Shown: positions 1 through 17,220 of the stretch, piece after piece | How the letters are laid out: each line of letters starts with the position of its first letter | Position numbering within the stretch: the first letter of the stretch is position 1 | Origin: a virus | Lineage: Duplodnaviria > Heunggongvirae > Uroviricota > Caudoviricetes | Strand: one strand, 5' to 3' | DNA length: 18,165 nucleotides | Virus record (IMG/VR): IMGVR_UViG_2681813004_000010 | Notes under the pieces: generated by a model | What the model was told of the DNA's origin: nothing | The model's database searches: none | What the model saw: the letters and a program-made list of their open reading frames with translations, nothing else | Position numbers and translations under genes: made by a program

Positions 1-2948
<2,948 letters not shown>

Positions 2949-4665: not shown

Positions 4666-4941
4666 ATGTCGATGTACACAACCGCCCAGCTGCTGGCGGC
4701 AAATGAGCAGAAATTTAAGTTTGATCCGCTGTTTCTGCGTCTCTTTTTCCGTGAGAGCTATCCCTTCACCACGGAGAAAGTCTATCTCTCACAAATTCCG
4801 GGACTGGTAAACATGGCGCTGTACGTTTCGCCGATTGTTTCCGGTGAGGTTATCCGTTCCCGTGGCGGCTCCACCTCTGAATTTACGCCGGGATATGTCA
4901 AGCCGAAGCACTTAGCATGGCTTTCTGAGGCTTTCGTGTAG
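4666..4941 (+). pseudogene. E: major capsid protein gpE, 5' fragment (codons 1 to ~82, then 9 unrelated codons and a stop)
   Basis: MSMYTTAQLLAANEQKFKFDPLFLRLFFRESYPFTTEKVYLSQIPGLVNMALYVSPIVSGEVIRSRGGSTSEFTPGYVKPKH matches the lambda gpE N-terminus. After ~4911 the sequence becomes …LAWLSEAFV-stop and lambda collinearity ends. Intact gpE is 341 aa. Confidence 0.85.
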
Positions 4942-5073
4942 TTGCTGGTTTTTACACTTAATCTTTTGATAATAAAGAATAAGTTTATCTGGCGCTTTCA
5001 CTGGATTTTCCTCGTTATCTGTGTGTTGCAATCATCTCTGTATTGCAGCTTGTATTGCTTTTTGGGGCTAAAA

Positions 5074-6309
5074 ATGGCTGGTGAGAACAAACTGAGCGAC
5101 AAAGCACTTAAAGGATATCTGGGGAAACCCAGAGAAAAGCAGATCACCATTGCTGATGGAAAGGGGCTTTCTATTCGTGTGAGTACCAAGGGGGCTGTGA
5201 GCTTTGTTTTCTTCTACAGGTTAGCAGGTGGCCGGGCTGCTCCGGTCTGGCTAACGTTGGGTAAATATCCTGATATGTCACTCAAACAGGCAAGGGAAAA
5301 GCGCGACGAGTGCCGTGGTTGGTTGGCTGACAAACGTGATCCGCGTATCCAGATTAAGATTCAGGCTGAAGAACGCTTAAAGCCGGTCACAGTGGAGGAT
5401 GCACTAAATTACTGGTATGAAAATTACTGTAAGGTGCGTCGTAAAACTCATGCTGTAACGCTTGGCAGATTTCGAAAGCATATCTTTCCCTATATCGGTC
5501 ATTTGCCCGTAAATGACACTCACCTATATGAATGGCTGGACTGTTTTGACCGAATTAAACGTAATGCACCAGTTATGGCGGCGTATGTTTTTTCTGACAC
5601 TAAATTAGCTCTTCGTTTTTGTCGGGTACGCCAGTACGCGACGTGTGATGCTTTAAAGGATTTGCGCATGAGTGATGTGGGGCAGATTGCAGGTAAGCGG
5701 GATCGGGTTCTGGATGAAGCCGAACTGGGCCAGCTCTGGAAGGCAATTTTTGTCGAGCCTGATTTAAAACTAATGTCTGAATACACGCGAAAAATGTTTG
5801 TGCTTTGTACAGTATTTGGATGTCGAATGAGTGAAGCCCGATTATCAGAATGGAGCGAATGGGATCTCGAAAGTTGGGTTTGGACTGTACCAAAAGAACA
5901 CTCAAAAACCGGTGTTGAAATCGTCAGACCAGTACCTGAAATTCTACGACAGTGGGTAACGGATGTTCACGAAGAGACAAAACATACTGGTTATGTGCTG
6001 GGAAGTCTGCGAATTAGAGAAAGCGTAAGCAAGATTGGGGGGAAAATCGGTAAACGTTTGGGCCATGAAAAACAATGGTCACTACACGACCTTAGAAGAA
6101 CGCTATCTACTCATCTAAGTGATCTCGGTGTTGAATTTTATGTAGTAGAACAACTGTTAGGCCATGCGCTACCTGGCGTGGCAGGTGTTTACAACCGGAG
6201 TAAGTTTATGGCTAAAAAACTGGATGCTCTGGAACTCTGGACTACATATCTCAATAGCATCGCAGGTGCTGATTCAAAAGTGACAATCCTCAAACAAAAG
6301 GCTGGTTAA
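5074..6309 (+). CDS. int: tyrosine site-specific integrase, P4-type
   Basis: N-terminus (GKGLSIRVSTKGAVSFVFFYRLAGG…LTLGKYPDMSLKQAREKRDE) looks like the arm-binding domain of P4-like integrases. C-terminal catalytic region has …WSLHDLRRTLSTHL… and …LLGHALPGVAGVYNR (H-x-x-R and catalytic Tyr). The track start at 4942 is an extension; the ATG at 5074 is taken as the start by homology. Confidence 0.9.
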   Translation: MAGENKLSDKALKGYLGKPREKQITIADGKGLSIRVSTKGAVSFVFFYRLAGGRAAPVWLTLGKYPDMSLKQAREKRDECRGWLADKRDPRIQIKIQAEERLKPVTVEDALNYWYENYCKVRRKTHAVTLGRFRKHIFPYIGHLPVNDTHLYEWLDCFDRIKRNAPVMAAYVFSDTKLALRFCRVRQYATCDALKDLRMSDVGQIAGKRDRVLDEAELGQLWKAIFVEPDLKLMSEYTRKMFVLCTVFGCRMSEARLSEWSEWDLESWVWTVPKEHSKTGVEIVRPVPEILRQWVTDVHEETKHTGYVLGSLRIRESVSKIGGKIGKRLGHEKQWSLHDLRRTLSTHLSDLGVEFYVVEQLLGHALPGVAGVYNRSKFMAKKLDALELWTTYLNSIAGADSKVTILKQKAG

Positions 6310-6310
6310 C

Positions 6311-6541
6311 ATGAAAAAAATGGCAATTGTTGATAAAAAGGGTCTGGAGTACATTCCTAACATCGATCGTATGATCCGTGAGAAAGAATGTCGGGAGCTA
6401 ACCACTCTTGCGAACAGCACACGCTGGAAGCTGGAGAAGGAAGGAAAATTTCCTAAGCGGATCAAGATTGGTTCCACTGCTGTTGCATATCGTCTTTCAG
6501 AAGTGCAGGCATGGATTCGAGGTGAGTGGATTGAGAAATAA
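6311..6541 (+). CDS. alpA: AlpA-family HTH regulator / excisionase-like protein
   Basis: 76 aa, …ECRELTTLANSTRWKLEKEGKFPKRIKIGSTAVAYRLSEVQAWI…, the typical AlpA (prophage CP4-57 regulator) pattern. Lies immediately downstream of int, overlapping its stop. Confidence 0.8.
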   Translation: MKKMAIVDKKGLEYIPNIDRMIREKECRELTTLANSTRWKLEKEGKFPKRIKIGSTAVAYRLSEVQAWIRGEWIEK

Positions 6542-6555
6542 TATTTGGAGAATCT

Positions 6556-7473
6556 ATGAGTAGAATGATTAATACCTTGTGCCCTTATAGCCTTATCCCA
6601 TTAAATCAAATAGAACATAATGGAGAACATGTTTTATTAGCTGGATTAGGAGCTCCGGAAAGTTTTACTGTGAATGTTTCAAAAGAAGAAAATACACGAA
6701 TTAACGATTTGTTGGATGAACCATTCTTAGGAATGGAAATAATAAAATTACTCTCGTCTATTTCGGGTCTTCAATCAAGGAGTGGTGAAGTGAAGCCATT
6801 TTTTACTGGAATTACTGAGGGTGGAGATGCGGTGCATGTTAGGATGTCTCCTGGCGAAGTGACATTGAAAGTTAAAAGTCCAGTAGTGAAGGATAAAAAT
6901 AATAATATTGTTGCAGTAACTGGTTACGAAAAGGAGGTACAAGAAACTTTGTTATCAATCACAAAAAAATATGAAGCCAAGGGGTTTTCTGTAATTACTT
7001 CCGCTCCTATAAATCGAGAGGCTGAGATCAAGCTTAACTTCAATTTGGATATTGAATTATTAAATTATCAATATTTAAAGATGGCCTATCTTACAATGGT
7101 CTACGTATTTGGTGATCGCGGGATTAAGTGTCCGGCTGCGAATGAAATTAGAAAAATAATTCTGAATAAATCACCCCTGCCTTCAACTTTAAAAGGTGTT
7201 CGTTCTCTATCATGGGATGTCAATACTTTACCATTACTGCCAAATGTTGATACCCACAAACACATTGTTGCAAGTTTTAATATTCATGGGGAAGTAGTAT
7301 GTGCAGTGTCACTTTTTGGTGTATTTAATAAAGTATTTCTCATTGAAAATGAATTGGTGGATAAGGATAATGTTTTTGGTGAGATATATGAAGTCGACTA
7401 TAAAACAAGAAAAATCAATAGAACGGATATTGTTCAGCGCATTAATGAGGTTACAAAAAACGTACAGTTTTAA
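6556..7473 (+). CDS. hypothetical protein, AT-rich cargo gene (305 aa), function unknown
   Basis: Long ORF with a good SD (GGAGAA 5 nt upstream) and markedly lower GC than its neighbours. No family recognised by eye; N-terminus has C-x-Y … EH-x-GEH … GLG, faintly HNH-like, but I cannot confirm it. Followed by a hairpin/T-run. Confidence 0.6.
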   Translation: MSRMINTLCPYSLIPLNQIEHNGEHVLLAGLGAPESFTVNVSKEENTRINDLLDEPFLGMEIIKLLSSISGLQSRSGEVKPFFTGITEGGDAVHVRMSPGEVTLKVKSPVVKDKNNNIVAVTGYEKEVQETLLSITKKYEAKGFSVITSAPINREAEIKLNFNLDIELLNYQYLKMAYLTMVYVFGDRGIKCPAANEIRKIILNKSPLPSTLKGVRSLSWDVNTLPLLPNVDTHKHIVASFNIHGEVVCAVSLFGVFNKVFLIENELVDKDNVFGEIYEVDYKTRKINRTDIVQRINEVTKNVQF

Positions 7474-7490
7474 ATGTTAACTTAAAATCA

Positions 7491-7531
7491 ACTGATTTGA
7501 GAGTTTACTCAAATCAGTAACGATATTTTTT
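7491..7531 (+). terminator. stem-loop (ACTGATTTGAG / CTCAAATCAGT, 6-nt loop) followed by T6 run
   Basis: Perfect 11-bp inverted repeat at 7491-7501 and 7508-7518, 18 nt after the cargo stop; T-run at 7526-7531, slightly displaced from the stem, so not a textbook intrinsic terminator. Confidence 0.45.
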
Positions 7532-7635
7532 GTCAGGGTGGGAAATTAAACAAATAGTTCTCATATAGAGGTATGCACAGTATGTTGTAGAAGGTGTTAT
7601 GCGCCGGAGTACCCTACACTCTACGGCGCTGGTGG

Positions 7636-7815
7636 CTATTCCTGTTCTTTGGCCTTGCGGCGCTGGCGGTACTCAACTTCTCGTTTTAATGCTGCAGTGA
7701 CAAATTGTCCTGTACTTTCGCCAGGCATTTTTACTGCTTCAACATTGTCCATAACCTCATGCGGAACCCTTGCCGCAACGGTTTGTGATTTTGCGTTTAC
7801 TGCTTTTGTCGCCAT
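7636..7815 (-). CDS. small ribbon-helix-helix (CopG/Arc-like) regulator, putative island repressor
   Basis: Minus-strand ORF …MATKAVNAKSQTVAARVPHEVMDNVEAVKMPGESTGQFVTAALKREVEYRQRRKAKEQE has a beta-strand / helix / helix pattern typical of RHH proteins. Start chosen at the ATG with a GAGGG SD about 9 nt upstream; the track start at 7824 is three codons longer. Divergent from the replication operon. The overlapping plus-strand ORF 7649-7903 was rejected. Confidence 0.5.
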   Translation of the reverse strand: MATKAVNAKSQTVAARVPHEVMDNVEAVKMPGESTGQFVTAALKREVEYRQRRKAKEQE

Positions 7816-7866
7816 GTGGTGCATCCCTCAAAAAAAAACAAATGCAGTATGCAGGAAAAAAAATAA

Positions 7867-7918
7867 GTGTTCAACACTTGAAGTGTTCAACACCTTTGGT
7901 TAAATTGGTGTTCAACAC
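7867..7918. promoter_or_regulatory. three operator-like repeats GTGTTCAACAC in the divergent control region
   Basis: Exact 11-mers at 7867-7877, 7883-7893 and 7908-7918; the 11-mer is a near-palindrome (GTGTT-C-AACAC). Located between the minus-strand RHH gene and the plus-strand operon starting at 8016. Confidence 0.5.
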
Positions 7919-8015
7919 CTTGTTGATGCAATGTGCTTAAACGACGAAACCCGGCTGTGCGCTCACACTAACCGGGCTTCTAACCACCAACGATAGCAAC
8001 AGTATCGAGGTAGCT

Positions 8016-8439: not shown

Positions 8440-8727
8440 ATGAAAAATAAATTTTCTGGCTTTATTGCCAGCGGTCAAACTCATTCAAAAATCAGCCTTG
8501 GGGATATTTTCAAAGACAGCTATGGCTATCGGGTAAAGATTATTTCGGTTGATGATCGTCGTGTCTCTTATTTGCGTGATGGTTATGATTTTGAATGTGT
8601 TATGCCGCGTCAGCAGTTCGAAAGAGATTTCATTCTGGTAAAAAATTGCAAGACAGATAATCAGAGGCGTGCCGCAGGCTATATCCGTAAAATTCGGGCA
8701 ATGTTAGTTGCCGGAGGTAACAAATGA
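8440..8727 (+). CDS. hypothetical small protein (95 aa)
   Basis: GGAGAA SD 6 nt upstream; stop overlaps the primase start (ATGA). Confidence 0.5.
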   Translation: MKNKFSGFIASGQTHSKISLGDIFKDSYGYRVKIISVDDRRVSYLRDGYDFECVMPRQQFERDFILVKNCKTDNQRRAAGYIRKIRAMLVAGGNK

Positions 8728-10544
8728 AACGTGCTCCGAACTTAAAATACCAACCGCGCGACAAAATGACGGAAGTCATCATTTTTGCTGGCAGTGATGC
8801 CTGGAGCCATGCAAAAGAATGGAATGAATGGGCAGGTAAGCATATTGCAGCAGATGATACACCACCAGTCATTCTGGGTACGGAACAACTGGAAAACCTG
8901 GATGATATGCAAATTATCGATGAAGGCCGTCATTATGTGCGTGTTTATCGTGCCGGAAAGATTGCAGAGAAAAGTCTGACGAAGGTTGCGACATTACTTG
9001 CTATTGCAGGCGTAAAGGAAGCACGTTGTTACCGTAGCTTTGTTGATCGAGAGCCTGAAGACTGGACTCCGCGCCTTGTCGGCCTAAAAGCTGAAGCGGA
9101 GCATGGGGAAAGTCTGGTGATTGAACTGCCAGTGAAGAAGGCTGAGCGCAAAAATGACGAGCGTGCTTCATCTTTGGCGTTGAATCAGATGGGGGCCAGC
9201 CAGCGCGGTGAAGTTCTCCTTGCACATTACGGCGGCGAACTGGCAATCAATGCCGACTCTGACACCGTTCATCATTACAACGGCGTTGTATGGGAGCCGG
9301 TTCAGGATAAAGAGTTACAGCGTGCTATGGCGCAGATTTTCATTGATGCGGAGATCAGCTATTCGCAGAACGCTATTAAATCGGCGGTAGATACCATGAA
9401 GTTAAGTTTGCCTGTAATGGGGAATACAGCCCGTAACCTGATTGGATTCAGTAACGGGGTATTTGATACCAGAACTGGTAATTTTCGGGAGCATAACAAA
9501 AACGACTGGTTGTTAATTGCCAGTGAATTACCTTTCAGCCCACCAGCAGAGGGGGAAACGCTGGCAACACATGCGCCGAATTTCTGGAAGTGGTTGCGCC
9601 GTTCGGTGGCTGAGAATGACCGCAAGGCAGATCGCGTACTGGCGGCATTATTCATGGTGCTGGCGAACCGGTACGACTGGCAGTTATTCATTGAGGTAAC
9701 AGGGCCGGGGGGAAGTGGTAAAAGTGTGATGGCGGAGATTTGCACCATGCTGGCGGGTAAGGCTAATACAGTATCAGCAAGCATGAAGGCGCTGGAAGAT
9801 GCAAGGGAACGTGCGTTAGTGGTTGGCTTTTCGCTGATTATCATGCCGGATATGACCCGCTACGCTGGTGATGGGGCAGGGATTAAGGCCATTACAGGCG
9901 GTGACAAGGTGGCAATTGACCCGAAACACAAAGCCCCCTATTCAACGCGTATTCCGGCAGTAGTACTGGCGGTTAACAATAACGCCATGTCATTCAGTGA
10001 CCGCAGCGGGGGGATCTCACGTCGTCGGGTGATATTCAATTTTTCGGAAGTTGTACCGGAGAACGAACGCGATTCGATGCTGGCGGAAAAAATAGAAGGT
10101 GAGCTGGCGGTAGTGATTCGTCATCTGCTTACACGGTTTGCTGATCAGGACGAAGCCAGACGCCTGTTATATGAGCAGCAGAAATCTGAAGAAGCACTGG
10201 CGATAAAGCGAGAGGGGGATTCGCTGGTGGACTTCTGCGGCTATCTCATGGCATCGGTAATGTGTGATGGCCTATTAGTGGGTAATGCTGAAATTGTGCC
10301 ATTCAGCCCACGCAGGTATCTCTATCATGCCTATCTGGCTTATATGAGGGCACATGGGTTTGGTAAACCTGTAACACTGACGCGCTTCGGTAAAGATATG
10401 CCGGGGGCAATGGCGGAATATGGCAGGGAGTATATGAAACGGAAAACGAAGCACGGTTTGCGTTCAAACGTGACACTGACGGAGGAATCAGAGGACTGGA
10501 TGCCATCATGTGTATCGGTCACTAATGACGATAGCAAAAATTAA
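8724..10544 (+). CDS. replication primase/helicase, P4-family (D5-like SF3 NTPase domain)
   Basis: 606 aa. Walker A FIEVTGPGGSGKSV, hydrophobic Walker B …LVVGFSLIIMPDM…, then …GIKAITGGDKVAIDPKHKAPYS…, typical of phage/plasmid P4-family primase C-terminal domains. GGAGGT SD; iteron origin immediately downstream. Confidence 0.8.
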   Translation: MKRAPNLKYQPRDKMTEVIIFAGSDAWSHAKEWNEWAGKHIAADDTPPVILGTEQLENLDDMQIIDEGRHYVRVYRAGKIAEKSLTKVATLLAIAGVKEARCYRSFVDREPEDWTPRLVGLKAEAEHGESLVIELPVKKAERKNDERASSLALNQMGASQRGEVLLAHYGGELAINADSDTVHHYNGVVWEPVQDKELQRAMAQIFIDAEISYSQNAIKSAVDTMKLSLPVMGNTARNLIGFSNGVFDTRTGNFREHNKNDWLLIASELPFSPPAEGETLATHAPNFWKWLRRSVAENDRKADRVLAALFMVLANRYDWQLFIEVTGPGGSGKSVMAEICTMLAGKANTVSASMKALEDARERALVVGFSLIIMPDMTRYAGDGAGIKAITGGDKVAIDPKHKAPYSTRIPAVVLAVNNNAMSFSDRSGGISRRRVIFNFSEVVPENERDSMLAEKIEGELAVVIRHLLTRFADQDEARRLLYEQQKSEEALAIKREGDSLVDFCGYLMASVMCDGLLVGNAEIVPFSPRRYLYHAYLAYMRAHGFGKPVTLTRFGKDMPGAMAEYGREYMKRKTKHGLRSNVTLTEESEDWMPSCVSVTNDDSKN

Positions 10545-10557
10545 ACTTATGGAATAA

Positions 10558-10780
10558 CTGTTCACCACTGTTCACCCTGTCATAAATATCTTTTATATCA
10601 GTATATTATAGGGTGAACAGTTATTTATGAACTGTTCACCAAACTATTCACTGTTCACCTTTTTGATTGTTTATTGAGCTTCAAGGGTGAACAGTGGTGA
10701 ACAGTTGGTGAATAGTTTTTGTGAAACTGTTCACCCATTAACATTATGAATTAAAAGAGAAAATATCAAAAGGTGAACAG
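10558..10780. repeat. iteron array / candidate replication origin (9-mer CTGTTCACC and complement GGTGAACAG)
   Basis: Perfect forward copies at 10558, 10568, 10632, 10651 and 10727; reverse copies at 10612, 10686, 10696 and 10772; plus degenerate copies (CTATTCAC, GGTGAATAG, GGTGAAGG). Embedded in AT-rich DNA directly after the primase gene. Confidence 0.7.
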
Positions 10781-11077: not shown

Positions 11078-11605
11078 CGGCGCAAATATCAGTTTACGGG
11101 CGGTTGGTGGACGACCCGCAGACAAAACAGACCAGCAAGGGCACCCCCATGACGCTGGCGCGTATGGCGGTATCACTGCCTTGCAGTCAGTCGGATGACG
11201 GTCAGGCGACGATGTGGTTATCTGTCCTGGCGTTTGGCAGACAAGCCGACGCGCTGGCAAAGCATCACAAATGCGAACTCCTGAGCGTGGCGGGTAACAT
11301 GCAGATGAGCCAGTGGACTGGACAGAACGGCGAAACGCGGCAGGGCTGGCAGGTTATCGCAGACAGCGTAATCAGTGCGCGATCGGTGCGACCGGGCGGC
11401 AAAACAGAACGGCGAAACGCGGCAGGGCTGGCAGGTTATCGCAGACAGCGTAATCAGTGCGCGATCGGTGCGACCGGGCGGCAAAAAAGGCCAACAGGGG
11501 CAGGCTACTGACGCACTGAACAGAGCAAAACAACAGGCAGATCAGCAAGGAAGCCAGCCACCAGTGGGAGATAATGAGCAATGGGGAGATGATATCCCAT
11601 TTTAA
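11074..11605 (+). pseudogene. ssb: single-stranded DNA-binding protein (SSB), frameshifted by an internal 82-bp tandem duplication
   Basis: N-terminal OB-fold-like sequence MTAQISVYGRLVDDPQTKQTSKGTPMTLARMAVSL…WLSVLAFGRQADALAKHH…. The canonical SSB C-terminal tail …QPPVGDNEQWGDDIPF is present but in the +1 frame (track ORF 11375-11605). Removing one 82-bp unit restores a single ~150-aa SSB. Confidence 0.7.
11322..11485. repeat. perfect tandem duplication, 2 x 82 bp
   Basis: Unit acagaacggcgaaacgcggcagggctggcaggttatcgcagacagcgtaatcagtgcgcgatcggtgcgaccgggcggcaaa occurs at 11322-11403 and again at 11404-11485. 82 is not a multiple of 3. Confidence 0.9.
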
Positions 11606-11624: not shown

Positions 11625-11648
11625 GCCGGAAAAAATAAATTTTCCGGC
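11625..11648. terminator. A/T-rich hairpin (GCCGGAAA / TTTCCGGC) downstream of ssb
   Basis: 8-bp inverted repeat flanked by an A-run on the 5' side; no T-run on the 3' side, so only weakly terminator-like on the plus strand. Confidence 0.3.
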
Positions 11649-11822
11649 ATGCTACATAAATCCCGACCAAAGGGAGTGAATATATTAACACTAATTGTTC
11701 GCACTGAAGTTGTCACCCCAAAACTTTATACAACATTGCACTCGGTTGCATGTGTTCGCATGACAAATATCGGTGATAGCATATATCCACAATTATTTTT
11801 AATGAATGCAAAGAGGATGCGT

Positions 11823-12863
11823 ATGGTTGATTTATATTCGCCTACCCAGCTTGTACAGGTGGTTAATGCTGTAGATGTACAAAAACAACTAAATGCGTTG
11901 TTTACCAGTTTGTTTTTTACTCGCTCGGTAATGTTTGGATCGCGCGATATTATTCTTGATACAATCGACGATCCAAATATCCCAATTGCAGCGTTTTGTT
12001 CTCCTATGGTGGGTAGTAAAGTTTCACGTGACGAAGGGTACGAATCAAAAACAATTCGTCCAGGCTATATGAAGCCGAAAAGCAGCATTGATCCAAATAA
12101 GTTAGCTGTGCGCCCTGCTGGTGTATCACCTGAGCAATACAATGCTTTTGGGGCGCGTAATATTAAAGTTAAACAGGCGATTGTAAATCAAGCTAAAGCT
12201 ATTCGTGCACGTATTGAATGGCTTGCCGTTCAGGCAATCACAACGGGGAAAAATATCATTGAGGGCGATGGTATTGAACGTTATGAGCTGGACTGGAATA
12301 TTAAACCACAAAATATCATCACTCAGTCTGGCGGTACTGAGTGGTCAGGTAAGGATAAAGAAACTTTTGATCCAAATGATGATATTGAGAGCTACGCAGA
12401 ATTTAGTGAGGGCGTCACTAATATCATCATTATGGGCGGTAATGTATGGAAGAAATACCGTTCATTCAGAGCGATAAAAGAGGCTCTGGATACCCGTCGT
12501 GGTTCTAATTCCGAACTGGAAACGGCCCTTAAAGACCTTGGTGATTCGGTGAGTTTTAAAGGATATATGGGCGATGTTGCGATTGTTGTTTACAGCGGGC
12601 GTTATACCGACGAGGACGGAACTGAAAAACATTTCCTTGATCCTGATTTGATGGTGCTTGGCAATACGGCTCTTCAGGGGATTGTCGCCTATGGCGGTAT
12701 TCAGGATCCGGAGCTAATCCGAATGGGGCTGACTAAAGCCGAACTTGCACCGAAAAACTATATTGTGCCTGGTGATCCGGCTATTGAATATGTGCAGACA
12801 CATTCAGCACCACAGCCAATACCGGCCCGCATCAATCGTTTTGTTACCGTTCGCATTGGCTAA
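11823..12863 (+). CDS. major capsid protein homolog (lambda gpE-like, HK97-fold) encoded by the island
   Basis: 346 aa. …NIITQSGGTEWSGKDKETFDPNDDIESYA… and …YRSFRAIKEALDTRRGSNSELETALKDLGDSVSFKGYMGDVAIVVYSGRY… align closely with lambda gpE (…NITQSGGTEWSKRDKSTYDPTDDIEAYA…, …FRSFKAVKEKLDTRRGSNSELETAVKDLGKAVSYKGMYGDVAIVVYSGQY…); the ends are more divergent. Start chosen at the ATG with an AAGAGGA SD; the track start at 11649 is an extension. Confidence 0.8.
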   Translation: MVDLYSPTQLVQVVNAVDVQKQLNALFTSLFFTRSVMFGSRDIILDTIDDPNIPIAAFCSPMVGSKVSRDEGYESKTIRPGYMKPKSSIDPNKLAVRPAGVSPEQYNAFGARNIKVKQAIVNQAKAIRARIEWLAVQAITTGKNIIEGDGIERYELDWNIKPQNIITQSGGTEWSGKDKETFDPNDDIESYAEFSEGVTNIIIMGGNVWKKYRSFRAIKEALDTRRGSNSELETALKDLGDSVSFKGYMGDVAIVVYSGRYTDEDGTEKHFLDPDLMVLGNTALQGIVAYGGIQDPELIRMGLTKAELAPKNYIVPGDPAIEYVQTHSAPQPIPARINRFVTVRIG

Positions 12864-12872
12864 GGGGGAGCA

Positions 12873-13214
12873 ATGGCTACTCATTACACTGAACTCATGG
12901 CTGGCACTGAAGCACTGGTGACTACGCTGGGGATATTTTCAGCTAATAAAGGGGTAATTCCTGCATTTACGCCACTGATGCAGGAAGATGCAACAGGTGC
13001 ACTGGTGGTATGGGATGGTTCGAGCGTAGGTAAAGCGGTTTATGTTTCCGCTGTACAAATCGACACCGCGAAAAAAACACAGGCTCAGGTCTATAAGACA
13101 GGTGTCTTAAATGTTGATGCTCTGAACTGGCCTGAGTCTGTTAAAGAACTGTCAGTAAAGGTTGCAGCGTTTGTTGGCTCAGGTATTTCTGTTCAGCCGC
13201 TGGCTCGTGTGTAA
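12873..13214 (+). CDS. head decoration protein homolog (lambda gpD-like)
   Basis: 113 aa. …FTPLMQEDATGALVVWDGSSVGKAVYVSAV…VYKTGVLNVDALNWPESVKELSVKVAAFVGSGISV parallels lambda gpD …MTPLMLDT…[19 protein letters not shown]…[36 protein letters not shown]. Strong SD (AAGGGGGAG). Confidence 0.7.
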   Translation: MATHYTELMAGTEALVTTLGIFSANKGVIPAFTPLMQEDATGALVVWDGSSVGKAVYVSAVQIDTAKKTQAQVYKTGVLNVDALNWPESVKELSVKVAAFVGSGISVQPLARV

Positions 13215-13225
13215 AGGGGGATACA

Positions 13226-13609
13226 ATGCAGAATGATTACAATGACCTTAAGCCAATTGCCGAAATGATGTACCCGAATCCAGCTGTAGAGGAATTAAAA
13301 GCTATCGCTGACAAAATGTGTTTAAGCGAGCGCCTTGTTGATATGAATCAGGTGATGGAAATTACAACCCTGAGTCGGCGTACACTGCTAAACCTTGAGG
13401 CTAGTGGAGAGTTCCCGGAGCGTGTGCAGGTTACGGAAGGGCGTAAGGCCTGGTATTTAAGTGAAGTGATCGACTGGATAAATAATATTCCTCGCGCTTC
13501 TGAATATTGCCGCGTACCTGTCCCAAAAAAGCCAGATGCGGCGCTATGCCTCAAGATTGAGCGTGTACGCCGCAATGCACGGGATGGTCGCTATAAGCTG
13601 ATTGGTTGA
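13226..13609 (+). CDS. AlpA-like HTH protein with N-terminal extension (127 aa)
   Basis: …MNQVMEITTLSRRTLLNLEASGEFPERVQVTEGRKAWYLSEVIDWI… fits the AlpA-family HTH. Strong SD (AAGGGGGA). Ends about 10-30 bp before the cos-flanking homology begins. Confidence 0.6.
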   Translation: MQNDYNDLKPIAEMMYPNPAVEELKAIADKMCLSERLVDMNQVMEITTLSRRTLLNLEASGEFPERVQVTEGRKAWYLSEVIDWINNIPRASEYCRVPVPKKPDAALCLKIERVRRNARDGRYKLIG

Positions 13610-13617
13610 TGAAATTA

Positions 13618-13854
13618 GGGCCCGCTCTGGCTGGCGGGTCCTTTCCGGCGATCTGACAGGTTACGGGGCGGCGACCTCGCAGTTTTTCGCTATTTGTGAA
13701 AATTTTCCTGTTTAAGGCGTTTCCGTTCTTCTTCGCCGTAACTTAATGTTTTTATTAAAAACACCCCCTGAAAAGAAAGGAAACGACAGGTGCTAAAAAC
13801 AGGCTTTTTGGCCTCTGTCGTTTCCTTTCTCTGGTTTTGTCCGTGGAATGAACA
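13618..13854 (+). other. cos: lambda-type cos site (cosQ-like flank, cosN with 12-nt cohesive end GGGCGGCGACCT at ~13666-13677, cosB region up to Nu1)
   Basis: …gggtcctttccggcgatctgacaggttacg|gggcggcgacctcgc… matches my recollection of the lambda right-end / left-end junction; the downstream sequence up to the Nu1 ATG resembles the lambda cosB region with a few substitutions. Confidence 0.8.
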
Positions 13855-14400
13855 ATGGAAGCCAACAAAAAGCAGCTGGCTGACATTTTCGGTGCGAGTA
13901 TCCGTACCATTCAGAACTGGCAGGAGCAGGGAATGCCCGTTCTGCGAGGCGGTGGCAAGGGTAATGAGGTGCTTTATGACTCTGCCGCCGTCATAAAATG
14001 GTATGCCGAAAGGGATGCTGAAATTGAGAACGAAAAGCTGCGCCGGGAAGTTGAAGAACTGCGGCAGGCCAGCGAGACAGATCTCCAGCCAGGGACTATT
14101 GAGTACGAACGCCATCGACTTACGCGTGCGCAGGCCGACGCACAGGAGCTGAAAAATGCCAGAGACTCCGCTGAAGTGGTGGAAACCGCATTCTGTACTT
14201 TCGTGCTGTCGCGGATCGCAGGTGAAATTGCCAGTATTCTCGACGGGATCCCCCTGTCGGTGCAGCGGCGTTTTCCGGAACTGGAAAACCGACATGTTGA
14301 TTTCCTGAAACGGGATATCATCAAAGCCATGAACAAAGCAGCCGCGCTGGATGAACTGATATCGGGGTTGCTGAGTGAATATATCGAACAGTCAGGTTAA
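13855..14400 (+). CDS. Nu1: terminase small subunit Nu1
   Basis: 181 aa, MEANKKQLADIFGASIRTIQNWQEQGMPVLRGGGKGNEVLYDSAAVIKWYAERD…, near-identical to lambda Nu1 as I recall it. 26-nt overlap with A as in lambda. Confidence 0.92.
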   Translation: MEANKKQLADIFGASIRTIQNWQEQGMPVLRGGGKGNEVLYDSAAVIKWYAERDAEIENEKLRREVEELRQASETDLQPGTIEYERHRLTRAQADAQELKNARDSAEVVETAFCTFVLSRIAGEIASILDGIPLSVQRRFPELENRHVDFLKRDIIKAMNKAAALDELISGLLSEYIEQSG

Positions 14401-16114
14401 CAGGCTGCGGCATTTTGTCCGCGCCGGGCTTCGCTCACTGTTCAGGCCGGAGCCACAGACTGCCGTTGAATGGGCGGATGCTAATTACTATCTCCCGAAA
14501 GAATCCGCATACCAGGAAGGGTGCTGGGAAACACTGCCCTTTCAGCGGGCCATCATGAATGCGATGGGCAGCGACTACATCCGTGAGGTGAATGTGGTGA
14601 AGTCTGCCCGTGTCGGTTATTCCAAAATGCTGCTGGGTGTTTATGCCTACTTCATAGAGCATAAGCAACGCAACACACTTATCTGGTTGCCGACGGATGG
14701 TGATGCCGAGAACTTCATGAAAACTCACGTTGAGCCAACCATCCGTGATATTCCGTCGCTGCTGGCGCTGGCTCCGTGGTATGGCAAAAAGCACCGGGAT
14801 AACACGCTCACTATGAAGCGTTTCACCAATGGTCGTGGCTTCTGGTGCCTGGGCGGTAAAGCGGCAAAAAACTACCGTGAAAAGTCGGTGGATGTGGCGG
14901 GTTATGATGAACTTGCTGCCTTTGATGAGGATATTGAACAGGAAGGCTCTCCGACGTTCCTGGGCGATAAGCGTATTGAAGGCTCGGTCTGGCCAAAGTC
15001 CATCCGTGGCTCCACGCCCAAAGTGAGAGGCACCTGTCAGATTGAGCGTGCAGCCAGTGAATCCCCGCATTTTATGCGTTTTCATGTTGCCTGCCCGCAC
15101 TGCGGGGAGGAGCAGTACCTTAAATTTGGCGATAAAGAGACGCCGTTTGGCCTCAAATGGACGCCGGATGACCCCTCCAGCGTGTTTTATCTCTGTGAGC
15201 ATAATGCCTGCGTCATCCGTCAGCAGGAGCTGGACTTTACTGATGCCCGTTATATCTGCGAAAAGACCGGGATCTGGACCCGTGATGGCATTCTCTGGTT
15301 TTCGTCATCCGGTGAAGAGATTGAACCGCCTGACAGTGTGACCTTTCACATCTGGACGGCGTACAGCCCGTTCACCACCTGGGTGCAGATTGTCAAAGAC
15401 TGGATGAAGACGAAAGGGGATACGGGAAAACGTAAAACCTTCGTGAACACCACGCTCGGTGAGACGTGGGAAGCGAAAATCGGCGAACGTCCGGATGCTG
15501 AAGTGATGGCAGAGCGGAAAGAGTATTATTCAGCGCCCGTTCCTGATCGTGTGGCTTACCTGACCGCCGGTATCGACTCCCAGCTGGACCGCTACGAAAT
15601 GCGCGTATGGGGATGGGGGCCGGGTGAGGAAAGCTGGCTGATTGACCGGCAGATTATTATGGGCCGCCACGACGATGAACAGACGCTGCTGCGTGTGGAT
15701 GAGGCCATCAATAAAACCTATACCCGCCGGAATGGTGCAGAAATGTCGGTATCCCGTATCTGCTGGGATACTGGCGGGATTGACCCGACCATTGTGTATG
15801 AACGCTCGAAAAAACATGGGCTGTTCCGGGTGATCCCCATTAAAGGGGCATCCGTCTACGGAAAGCCGGTGGCCAGCATGCCACGTAAGCGAAACAAAAA
15901 CGGGGTTTACCTTACCGAAATCGGTACGGATACCGCGAAAGAGCAGATTTATAACCGCTTCACACTGACGCCGGAAGGGGATGAACCGCTTCCCGGTGCC
16001 GTTCACTTCCCGAATAACCCGGATATTTTTGATCTGACCGAAGCGCAGCAGCTGACGGCTGAAGAGCAGGTCGAAAAATGGGTGGATGGCAGGAAAAAAA
16101 GCGGTGTCTTATAA
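14375..16114 (+). pseudogene. A: terminase large subunit gpA, copy 2, truncated after codon ~575 (fused to E 3' sequence, ends …GRKK-SGVL-stop)
   Basis: MNISNSQVNRLRHFVRAGLRSLF… is collinear with lambda gpA through …EQVEKWVDGRKK, then reads 4 codons into E-derived sequence and stops. Copy 1 shows the normal continuation (…ILWDSKKRRNEALDCF…GEDE), so ~66 C-terminal codons are missing here. Confidence 0.85.
15134..16100 (+). repeat. direct repeat copy 2 (A gene segment), partner at 1-967
   Basis: See copy 1. The repeat ends at the A7 run (16094-16100), where copy 2 diverges into E sequence. Confidence 0.95.
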
Positions 16115-16415
16115 GGGAATGTATGGCGATGTGGCCATCGTCGTGTATTCCGGACAGTACGTGGAAAACGGCGTCAAAAAGAACTTCCTGCCGGACAACA
16201 CGATGGTGCTGGGGAACACTCAGGCACGCGGTCTGCGTACCTATGGCTGTATTCAGGATGCGGACGCACAGCGCGAAGGCATTAACGCCTCTGCCCGTTA
16301 CCCGAAAAACTGGGTGACCACCGGCGATCCGGCGCGTGAGTTCACCATGATTCAGTCAGCACCGCTGATGCTGCTGGCTGATCCTGATGAGTTCGTGTCC
16401 GTTCAACTGGCGTAA
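16098..16415 (+). pseudogene. E: major capsid protein gpE, 3' fragment (about codons 237-341)
   Basis: KAVSYKGMYGDVAIVVYSGQYVENGVKKNFLPDNTMVLGNTQARGLRTYGCIQDADAQREGINASARYPKNWVTTGDPAREFTMIQSAPLMLLADPDEFVSVQLA matches the lambda gpE C-terminus. It is joined in a different frame to A codon ~575 and has no own start except a fortuitous ATG at 16086. Confidence 0.85.
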
Positions 16416-16866: not shown

Positions 16867-17220
16867 GTGGCTGATTTCGATAACCTGTTCGATGCTGCCA
16901 TTGCCCGCGCCGATGAAACAATACGCGGGTACATGGGAACGTCAGCCACCATGACATCCGGTGAGCAGTCCGGTGCGGTGATACGTGGTGTTTTTGATGA
17001 CCCTGAAAATATCAGCTATGCCGGACAGGGCGTGCGCGTTGAAGGCTCCAGCCCGTCCCTGTTTGTCCGGACTGATGATGTGCGGCAGCTGCGGCGCGGC
17101 GACACGCTGACCATCGGTGAGGAAAACTTCTGGATAGACCGGATTTCGCCGGATGATGGCGGAAGTTGTCATCTCTGGCTTGGGCGTGGTGTGCCGCCTG
17201 CCGTTAACCGTCGTCGCTGA
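16867..17220 (+). CDS. FII: head-tail joining protein gpFII (GTG start)
   Basis: 117 aa, (M)ADFDNLFDAAIARADETIRGYMGTSATMTSGEQSGAVIRGVFDDPENISYAGQGVRVEG…, matching lambda gpFII. Confidence 0.88.
   Translation: MADFDNLFDAAIARADETIRGYMGTSATMTSGEQSGAVIRGVFDDPENISYAGQGVRVEGSSPSLFVRTDDVRQLRRGDTLTIGEENFWIDRISPDDGGSCHLWLGRGVPPAVNRRR

Follow-up and report, generated by a model that had tools for sequence, protein, structure and literature searches.

A second AlpA-family gene between the head genes and cos of a helper-embedded phage-inducible chromosomal island: a candidate regulator of the satellite's late cassette

Gram-negative phage-inducible chromosomal islands (PICIs) and helper-embedded satellites are common. 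Typical PICIs of Escherichia coli encode a single AlpA protein (PMC11773190), and the AlpA of EcCICFT073 has been shown to activate its own promoter (PMC6092414). Another small protein, RppA, is encoded downstream of cos1 at the position of Nu1 and carries an N-terminal helix-turn-helix (HTH) (PMC6739421, PMC9026076); Rpp binds the small terminase (TerS) of the helper, prevents packaging of the phage and redirects TerS to a cosB that is unlike that of the helper and lacks the lambda R sites (PMC6739421). Helper-embedded PICIs (HE-PICIs) were described by Tommasini, Mageeney and Williams (NAR Genom Bioinform 2023; PMC10111431), and that paper places the type 11capE at the site E:Phage_cap_E:80 and reports a doubled attP arm motif ∼132 bp from the centre of att. 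Here, we have analyzed a stretch of 18,165 nucleotides from a virus of the class Caudoviricetes (IMG/VR record IMGVR_UViG_2681813004_000010; this whole stretch is called the window), which holds an island of this kind. Our main subject is the gene at 13226–13609 (+ strand), whose product, a 127-aa winged-HTH protein of the AlpA family (hereafter AlpA127), is encoded immediately before a lambda-type cos. The gene was found to be a constant member of a satellite head-gene cassette, and our tentative reading is that its product regulates this cassette.

The open reading frame (ORF) of AlpA127 starts with ATG, is preceded by a GGGGGA Shine-Dalgarno sequence and follows the decoration gene by 11 nt. 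The product scored 35.8 bits against Pfam Phage_AlpA (PF05930), with residues 36–85 aligned to profile positions 2–51 of 51; as this is above the gathering cutoff of 21 bits, AlpA127 belongs to the AlpA family. It also matched PDB entry 8c3t, 'AlpA family phage regulatory protein' (2e-9 for AlpA127 alone and 6e-13 for the family profile, which had no other PDB match; a literature search on this entry returned no relevant papers), and phrog_2790 (1e-49), which is annotated 'excisionase and transcriptional regulator'. No match was obtained in NCBIfam and only a weak one in PADLOC (E = 0.0028). Thus, the 127-aa AlpA-type HTH gene reported by the initial annotation, the second of the island after that at 6311–6541, was confirmed by both Pfam and 8c3t. 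The N-terminal extension that had been noted was also found (35 aa), but the HTH is central and does not lie in the C-terminal half as proposed; a further extension of ∼40 aa follows it. Both extensions are conserved, with the motif ELxxxADKM preceding the HTH and VPVPxKPDxALCLKxERVRRQA following it. Homologues formed 98 database clusters, nearly all of them 127 aa in length. Identity to the first AlpA of the island was 36% over 67 aa. AlpA127 is paralogous to AlpA, the master activator of PICIs. As an uncharacterised protein that belongs to a known family and occurs in a known element, it does not constitute a new kind of system. The Pseudomonas AlpA antiterminator was also considered as a homologue and rejected: it is larger, resembles Q and has its HTH at the C-terminus (PMC9371919), and 8c3t is all that the family profile matches in PDB. 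With regard to distribution, AlpA127 with adjoining cosQ/cosN was detected in 407 out of 5,426 complete genomes of E. coli (111 of these with a lambda-type continuation), and no close homologue could be identified among 50,697 phage genomes. On these searches AlpA127 appears to be satellite-specific.

To describe the genomic context, we compared 11 loci, which come from Escherichia, Trabulsiella, Salmonella, Buttiauxella, Kosakonia, Kluyvera, Superficieibacter, Cedecea, Scandinavium and a metagenome contig (single loci are given as L numbers where positions are cited); a scan of genome contigs for a wider survey yielded no more than four additional loci. The order capsid (346–350 aa), decoration (113 aa), AlpA127, cosQ/cosN was invariant in all 11 loci, with 23–54 nt between AlpA127 and cosQ. 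In nine loci, identity to the window proteins was 76–99% for the capsid, 69–100% for the decoration protein and 56–100% for AlpA127. The integrases of the same nine loci were 24–99% identical or undetected within the 10-kb flank, and the first-regulator and replication genes were replaced from locus to locus. In addition, the integration targets of AlpA127 islands vary (fis, a site near rpoD and the capsid gene E). AlpA127 travels with the capsid genes and neither with an integrase nor with any cosB type. Its closeness to cos is synteny, as AlpA127 is the last gene of the head block.

The integrase comparison bears on the idea that AlpA127 is a recombination directionality factor for the satellite integrase, or a substitute for the helper Xis like AlpA_1 of EcCIMP1. 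The AlpA/Vis family includes excisionases and the annotation of phrog_2790 names one, the second AlpA gene of EcCIMP1 supports helper excision (PMC11773190), and, once the element has circularised, the AlpA127 gene would be located upstream of attP and int. However, AlpA127 retains 56–72% identity in loci where Int is only 24–45% identical or undetected within the flank and where the targets differ, and this divergence counts against an integrase-dedicated excisionase. AlpA127 neither co-inherits nor co-varies with an integrase and att site; instead, it tracks the capsid genes, and a canonical alpA already follows int. Moreover, alpA_1 of EcCIMP1 is found on the opposite strand at the island end, outside any head-gene operon. 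We therefore regard a role in excision as quite unlikely.

The head-gene cassette consists of an E-like major capsid gene (11817–12863, +; Pfam Phage_cap_E, 3.7e-41), whose product is 42% identical to a helper-type capsid protein, a D-like head decoration gene (12873–13214, +; Pfam HDPD, 4.5e-15) and the AlpA127 gene, with an operon-like spacing of 9–11 nt. A candidate promoter of this cassette was recognised at 11726–11782 (+), where TTATAC, TTGCAC, TTGCAT and TTCGCAT are arranged in 10-bp phase (11726–11761) and are followed by an extended −10 element, TGATAGCAT, at 11774–11782, 25 nt past the third repeat (TTGCAT); a −35 element is absent. The candidate promoter is preceded by a hairpin terminator, detected at 11625–11648 by a terminator scan, which closes the replication zone and for which equivalent GC hairpins are present in all relatives. 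The promoter pattern is unique in the window. In every AlpA127 locus, the region upstream of the capsid gene holds three to four TTRYAC-type hexamers in 10-bp phase and then an extended −10. Eight AlpA127 loci have the strict three-repeat pattern, each of them a single time and always at this position. The two-repeat motif was absent from ∼37 kb of helper prophage as well as from the EcCICFT073 end, which lacks AlpA127, and its helper region. The repeats also differ between lineages: the window and the satellite of E. coli SCU-102 have TTGCAC-TTGCAT-TTCGCAT, Cedecea has TTGTAC, and Buttiauxella/Scandinavium have TTATAC. The AlpA127 proteins of Cedecea and Buttiauxella/Scandinavium are the more divergent ones, and the repeats drift along with this divergence.

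Two further observations were made in the same region. In relatives outside E. coli, a stem-loop with a GGAGG loop and compensating changes in the stem lies between the terminator and the repeats (L010 8420–8460; L007 8405–8450; also L013, L014 and L015); it is not obvious in the window. The core TATTGCA is common to the attP arm motif (5021–5059) and the late-promoter repeats (11726–11761), both of which are phased direct repeats, which may be a coincidence or reflect related binding proteins.

On the basis of these results, we tentatively favor the reading that AlpA127 regulates the satellite's own late head-gene cassette, although we hold it with slightly less than even confidence; the data show the anatomy, the family membership, the conservation and the linkage, and from these the binding site and the regulatory role are inferred. 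AlpA127 would be the cassette's own transcription factor, binding the phased repeats located between about −73 and −38 in a target promoter that has an extended −10 and no −35, and would switch on or sustain the expression of the capsid gene, the decoration gene and its own gene. It may also help transcription to pass a hairpin at cosQ. Since the PICI AlpA activates its own promoter, AlpA127 is read here as an activator of the late cassette. Late control was one of the options raised by the initial annotation; it is compatible with the results and is the one that we prefer, with the same reserve. Several points weigh against it. The first AlpA, or else a factor of the host or of the helper, could be what binds the repeats, and an activator encoded at the end of its own operon needs another trigger for its first expression. 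The covariation of repeats and protein rests on just two or three clades. An AlphaFold2 model built from a 19-sequence alignment reached a predicted local distance difference test score of only 53.5 and gives no structural interpretation of the extensions. Finally, the strict adjacency to cosQ in 11 of 11 loci and the hairpins that include a cosQ arm leave room for a role linked to cos. One variant of the favored reading takes up the last point: AlpA127 would be a head-gene switch that also drives read-through of the cosQ hairpin, thereby coupling terS or rpp to capsid expression. We consider this variant rather unlikely; if true, it would represent a second, late-acting AlpA circuit in Gram-negative PICIs beside the AlpA master regulator.

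Regulation could also be directed at the helper, with AlpA127 acting on helper promoters or transcripts to interfere with or time late functions. Delta and Epsilon of P4 and CapR of PLE are precedents for helper-directed regulation. Such a role would suit a satellite-specific gene that is absent from the phage genomes searched and is co-expressed with capsid homologues probably competing with the helper E and D, and the conservation of both terminal extensions suggests that the protein has a partner other than DNA. However, the repeat motif has no copy in the ∼37 kb helper prophage or the CFT073 helper region, and no positive evidence was found for this role. To our knowledge, lambdoid late genes lack internal promoters that could serve as targets, which also counts against it. 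An action on the helper appears improbable.

The satellite cos was assigned to 13636–13854 (+) on the basis of alignments to lambda (NC_001416; R3 corresponds to lambda bp 50–65 according to PMC9026076) and of single-nucleotide polymorphisms of the satellite lineage. It comprises cosQ (GGGTCCT, 13636–13642), the cosN cohesive end GGGCGGCGACCT (13666–13677) and the cosB sites R3 (13715–13730), R2 (∼13773–13788) and R1 (∼13816–13831), all on the + strand. The AlpA127 stop codon (13607–13609) is separated from cosQ by 26 nt, and the ATG of Nu1 is at 13855, so the initial annotation was right that the gene ends some 10–30 bp before a lambda-type cos running into an intact Nu1. By its sequence, the site is of lambda type, with cosQ, a 12-nt cohesive end, the order R3-I1-R2-R1 and the lambda spacing to Nu1. 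Within lambda bp 1–190, 13 differences were found (bp 16, 18, 31, 44, 71, 73, 92, 97, 102, 130 and 134, deletion of 136, and 170), and two more lie between cosQ and cosN. Hence, the site does differ from lambda at a few positions as had been suspected, which could have mattered for terminase specificity; altered Nu1 binding elements were not found, as cosQ, cosN, R3, R2 and R1 are all identical to those of lambda, and therefore nothing needs retargeting.

The stretch from cosQ to the start of Nu1 differs from the SCU-102 helper cos at 16 positions (13654–13840), and at 15 of these it agrees with the SCU-102 satellite cos, so that the cos stretch of the window is of the satellite lineage. An assignment of cos and Nu1 to a prophage lying downstream, which the initial annotation had considered, was thus rejected: the island has prophage sequence on either side, the polymorphisms are common to the SCU-102 satellite, and Nu1 with the truncated large terminase gene A′ is a duplicated helper segment within the island. 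Two side observations concern cosN elsewhere. The SCU-102 satellite has five substitutions in its 12-nt cohesive end (L001 18562–18578, corresponding to window 13661–13677) together with a nu1 pseudogene, and many E. coli matches end their alignment at window position 13670, which suggests that an inactivated satellite cosN is common.

Between AlpA127 and cos, RNA folding predicted a hairpin, GGGCCCGC-N8-GCGGGTCC (13618–13641, +), whose 3′ arm is cosQ; the 48-nt stretch that holds it (13604–13651) folds with −20.8 kcal/mol. Across the loci, the interval that separates cos from the last late gene contains either a stable hairpin with cosQ as the 3′ arm or a canonical terminator (L007, L010, L013–L016 and L006). 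The stem sequences vary by locus, and lambda has nothing comparable. These hairpins bear on the idea that AlpA127 is a packaging accessory, which binds DNA at or to the left of cosQ/cosN, or binds TerS, and favors satellite packaging or cos cleavage. That AlpA127 ends within 23–54 nt of cosQ in every one of the 11 loci, that the spacer hairpins include cosQ, and that DNA-binding genes often adjoin their sites would fit this idea. However, AlpA127 shows neither sequence nor profile similarity to RppA, RppC or Nu1. Rpp is encoded on the opposite side of cos, and AlpA127 coexists with a true Rpp homologue. Identical AlpA127 proteins are paired with lambda-type and phage-21-type cosB/TerS, and the cosB of the window needs no retargeting. 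Since cosQ, cosN and the first ∼45 bp to the right are common to lambda, there is no satellite-specific site. In EcCICFT073, the same slot holds an unrelated Nu3-like protein. Because of the strict adjacency and the cosQ hairpin, which has counterparts in relatives and none in lambda, a cos-linked role is retained, at low probability.

A more specific proposal of the initial annotation, that AlpA127 redirects packaging in the manner of Rpp, was rejected; the grounds are homology, gene position, the type of cosB, the coexistence of the gene with Rpp and the pairing of one protein with different cosB types. BLASTP of AlpA127 against RppA and against the 137-aa protein of EcCICFT073 produced no alignments. 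The AlpA127 family profile, searched against PDB at E ≤ 10, matched neither RppC (6hlk) nor 6hn7 nor any Nu1 chain (as a control, RppA found 6hlk at 5e-31), and hhalign of the family against Nu1-like proteins returned a probability of 0.1%. The Rpp architecture, a TerS-like winged HTH at residues 1–64 followed by a C-terminal coiled coil for dimerisation, is not that of AlpA127, whose HTH spans residues 36–85. AlpA127 lies upstream of cos, the downstream slot being occupied by Nu1 itself, and R3, R2 and R1 of the window are the lambda ones. EcCICFT073 has the order capsid, decoration, 137-aa protein (phrog_1999, Nu3-like), terminator, cos1 and rppA (144 aa); its 137-aa protein (L006 2084–2497) is similar to head maturation proteases in their C-terminal, Nu3/scaffold-like part (1e-8).

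The coexistence is seen in the Trabulsiella fis-PICI (L007), in which cos with a CACCACCAC-type cosB comes after AlpA127 and precedes an Rpp homologue (32% identity to RppA, 2e-19). The same AlpA127 protein (WP_001178671.1) occurs with a lambda-type cosB in SCU-102 and with a phage-21-type cosB/TerS in A37, where the N-terminal 90 residues of TerS are 84% identical to phage 21 gp1. Therefore, packaging specificity in this family is set by the cassette to the right of cosN and not by AlpA127. The breakpoint of the cosB cassette lies ∼43 bp to the right of the nick. Cassettes of cosB and terS/rpp exchanged between close relatives were noted from 13709 onward in the window and at L018 14484–15179, L007 10440–10943, L010 10480–11106 and L014 10470–10640. 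The variants comprised a lambda type, a phage-21-type DNA-binding domain fused to a PICI-type C-terminal part of TerS, a GGTGGTGG-type cosB with a 168–169-aa Nu1-like gene, a CACCACCAC-type cosB accompanied by Rpp, and a lambda-like cosB that has no terS beside it. A constant AlpA127-cosQ-cosN block beside a swappable cosB and terS/rpp cassette helps to predict which helpers and satellites form mobilisation pairs.

As to the element itself, the island is an HE-PICI of the 11capE type that interrupts the capsid gene E of the prophage at codon 82. The first positions of the window fall within gene A, which encodes the large terminase of a lambdoid prophage, and W, B, C, D and E come next. The 5′ fragment of the helper major capsid gene E (4666–4911, +, codons 1–82) translates as lambda E through GYVKPKH and diverges thereafter; it ends at 4911, the attL crossover region lies within it at ∼4902–4911, and the satellite int is the next gene on the same strand. 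The 3′ fragment of E (∼codons 237–341) is at 16098–16415 (+) and is followed by FI, FII and the tail genes. The int, alpA, primase, capsid and decoration genes are all co-oriented with the split E. E. coli SCU-102 and A37, in which the same partial capsid gene is annotated, carry the same island between the E 5′ fragment and a 263-codon E 3′ fragment. The tyrosine integrase (5071–6309, +; Pfam Arm-DNA-bind_3 and Phage_integrase) is 99.5% identical to that of the SCU-102 satellite at the same insertion site. It is preceded by a doubled arm-type motif, TGTATTGCAgctTGTATTGCt, read from the sequence at 5038–5059 (+) as part of an HE-PICI attP, which fits the doubling and the distance given for HE-PICIs in PMC10111431; a third, looser copy is present at 5021–5029.

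The first AlpA gene is a canonical PICI alpA of 76 aa at 6311–6541 (+; Pfam Phage_AlpA, 2.9e-15). The variable zone behind it (6517–7974) is unlike those of both A37 and SCU-102, and its 305-aa ORF at 6556–7473 had no match in Pfam, PHROGs, NCBIfam or PADLOC. A satellite primase gene (8724–10544, +; annotated as DNA primase family protein in relatives) and ori-like iterons of GGTGAACAGTT repeats (10543–10760) follow; the order is then ssb, E-like capsid, D-like decoration, the 127-aa ORF, cos, Nu1 and A′. The satellite ssb contains a perfect 82-bp tandem duplication (11322–11485) that is present as a single copy in A37 and SCU-102; the duplication shifts the frame, and its DDIPF tail is therefore found in a separate ORF (11375–11605). 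The AlpA127 gene, initially annotated as the last gene of the island, is not so, as the right part of the satellite also has cos, Nu1 and a truncated copy of A. Nu1 (TerS) is of lambda type, intact and 181 aa long, and lies inside the satellite (13855–14400, +; Pfam Phage_Nu1, 2.7e-100; 98% identity to lambda Nu1). A′ (14375–16097, +) covers the first ∼574 codons of the large terminase gene and is a 1.7-kb duplicate of the helper copy. No Rfam family and no tRNA could be identified in the window.

From within Nu1 onward, the sequence is helper-like, and 15134–16100 repeats window positions 1–967 with one mismatch. Nu1-A′ was thus captured recently from the Nu1-A of the helper through recombination, and an illegitimate deletion at an A-run subsequently took away what was left of A, together with attR and the middle of E. 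The A′ and E 3′ fragments are fused at this A-run microhomology, and attR and E codons ∼83–236, both retained in A37 and SCU-102, are missing from the junction, so that an intact attL/attR pair for precise excision is lacking. Because attR and the middle of E have been lost, the window copy can no longer excise or restore E. The exact junction was absent from all 5,426 complete E. coli genomes; misassembly was considered as its origin and judged unlikely, as the junction has only A-run microhomology and no repeat. Besides this fusion (window 16090–16105), the satellite-free prophages of strains W137 and CUPS03 have independent Nu1-A′::E deletions with other junctions (L004 17132/17133 and L005 ∼17184–17192), and thus the loss of the head-gene block from A to E recurs. 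Intact relatives have a DUF2971 gene between terS and attR (L018 15286–16044 and L001 19414–20172, both − strand), which matches the PADLOC candidate defence family PDC-S31 (7.5e-26) and is absent from the window because of the deletion. The window element is a decaying copy, with attR lost, ssb broken and the helper E beyond repair, and its own biology is of limited interest.

The element type, its cos and the capture of late genes have already been described. Term searches of PMC10111431 and of the other papers cited here did not find an AlpA paralogue of the late zone. If a dedicated regulator of this zone were identified, the model in which a single AlpA governs PICI induction would gain a further layer. 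In comparison with 11capE as presented in PMC10111431, the island shares the co-oriented insertion at codon ∼80 of a lambda E homologue, the int/alpA, variable, replication and late zones with an own E-like capsid gene, the attP arm motif TGTATTGCA and a right-end cos ∼90% identical to the helper cos, and it resembles the HE-PICIs there in having late genes captured from the helper. On the other hand, the window copy lacks attR and the middle of E, holds the captured helper Nu1-A′ and has the 82-bp duplication in ssb; and 11capE is without terS in that account, whereas the window copy and the A37 and SCU-102 relatives each have terS. Compared with lambda cos/Nu1, the spacing is the same except for one 1-bp deletion between R2 and R1, and the 13 substitutions or indels fall outside protein-binding elements; unlike lambda cos, the window copy sits inside a satellite, where homology to lambda begins exactly at cosQ.

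With respect to proteins, Rpp (PMC6739421; 6hlk, 6hn7) and AlpA127 are both small satellite HTH proteins encoded beside the satellite cos. Rpp is encoded downstream of it, combines an N-terminal TerS-like DNA-binding domain with a C-terminal coiled coil and goes with a cosB devoid of lambda R sites, whereas AlpA127 is encoded upstream, has a central AlpA-type HTH, lies next to a lambda-type cosB and, in one relative, occurs together with an Rpp homologue. AlpA_1 of EcCIMP1 (PMC11773190) is also a second AlpA-family gene at the far end of a PICI with a role distinct from that of the master regulator. It is Xis-like, encoded on the opposite strand, dispensable for the PICI cycle and able to replace the helper Xis (PMC11773190), while AlpA127 is co-oriented, in an operon with head genes and unlinked to any integrase type. 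A precedent for a DNA-binding activator is AlpA of EcCICFT073 (PMC6092414), which belongs to the same Pfam family and the same kind of element. AlpA has ∼70 aa and is encoded beside int in the integration zone, whereas AlpA127 is the third gene of the capsid cassette, carries additional conserved extensions of 35 aa at the N-terminus and 40 aa at the C-terminus, and has a different recognition helix.

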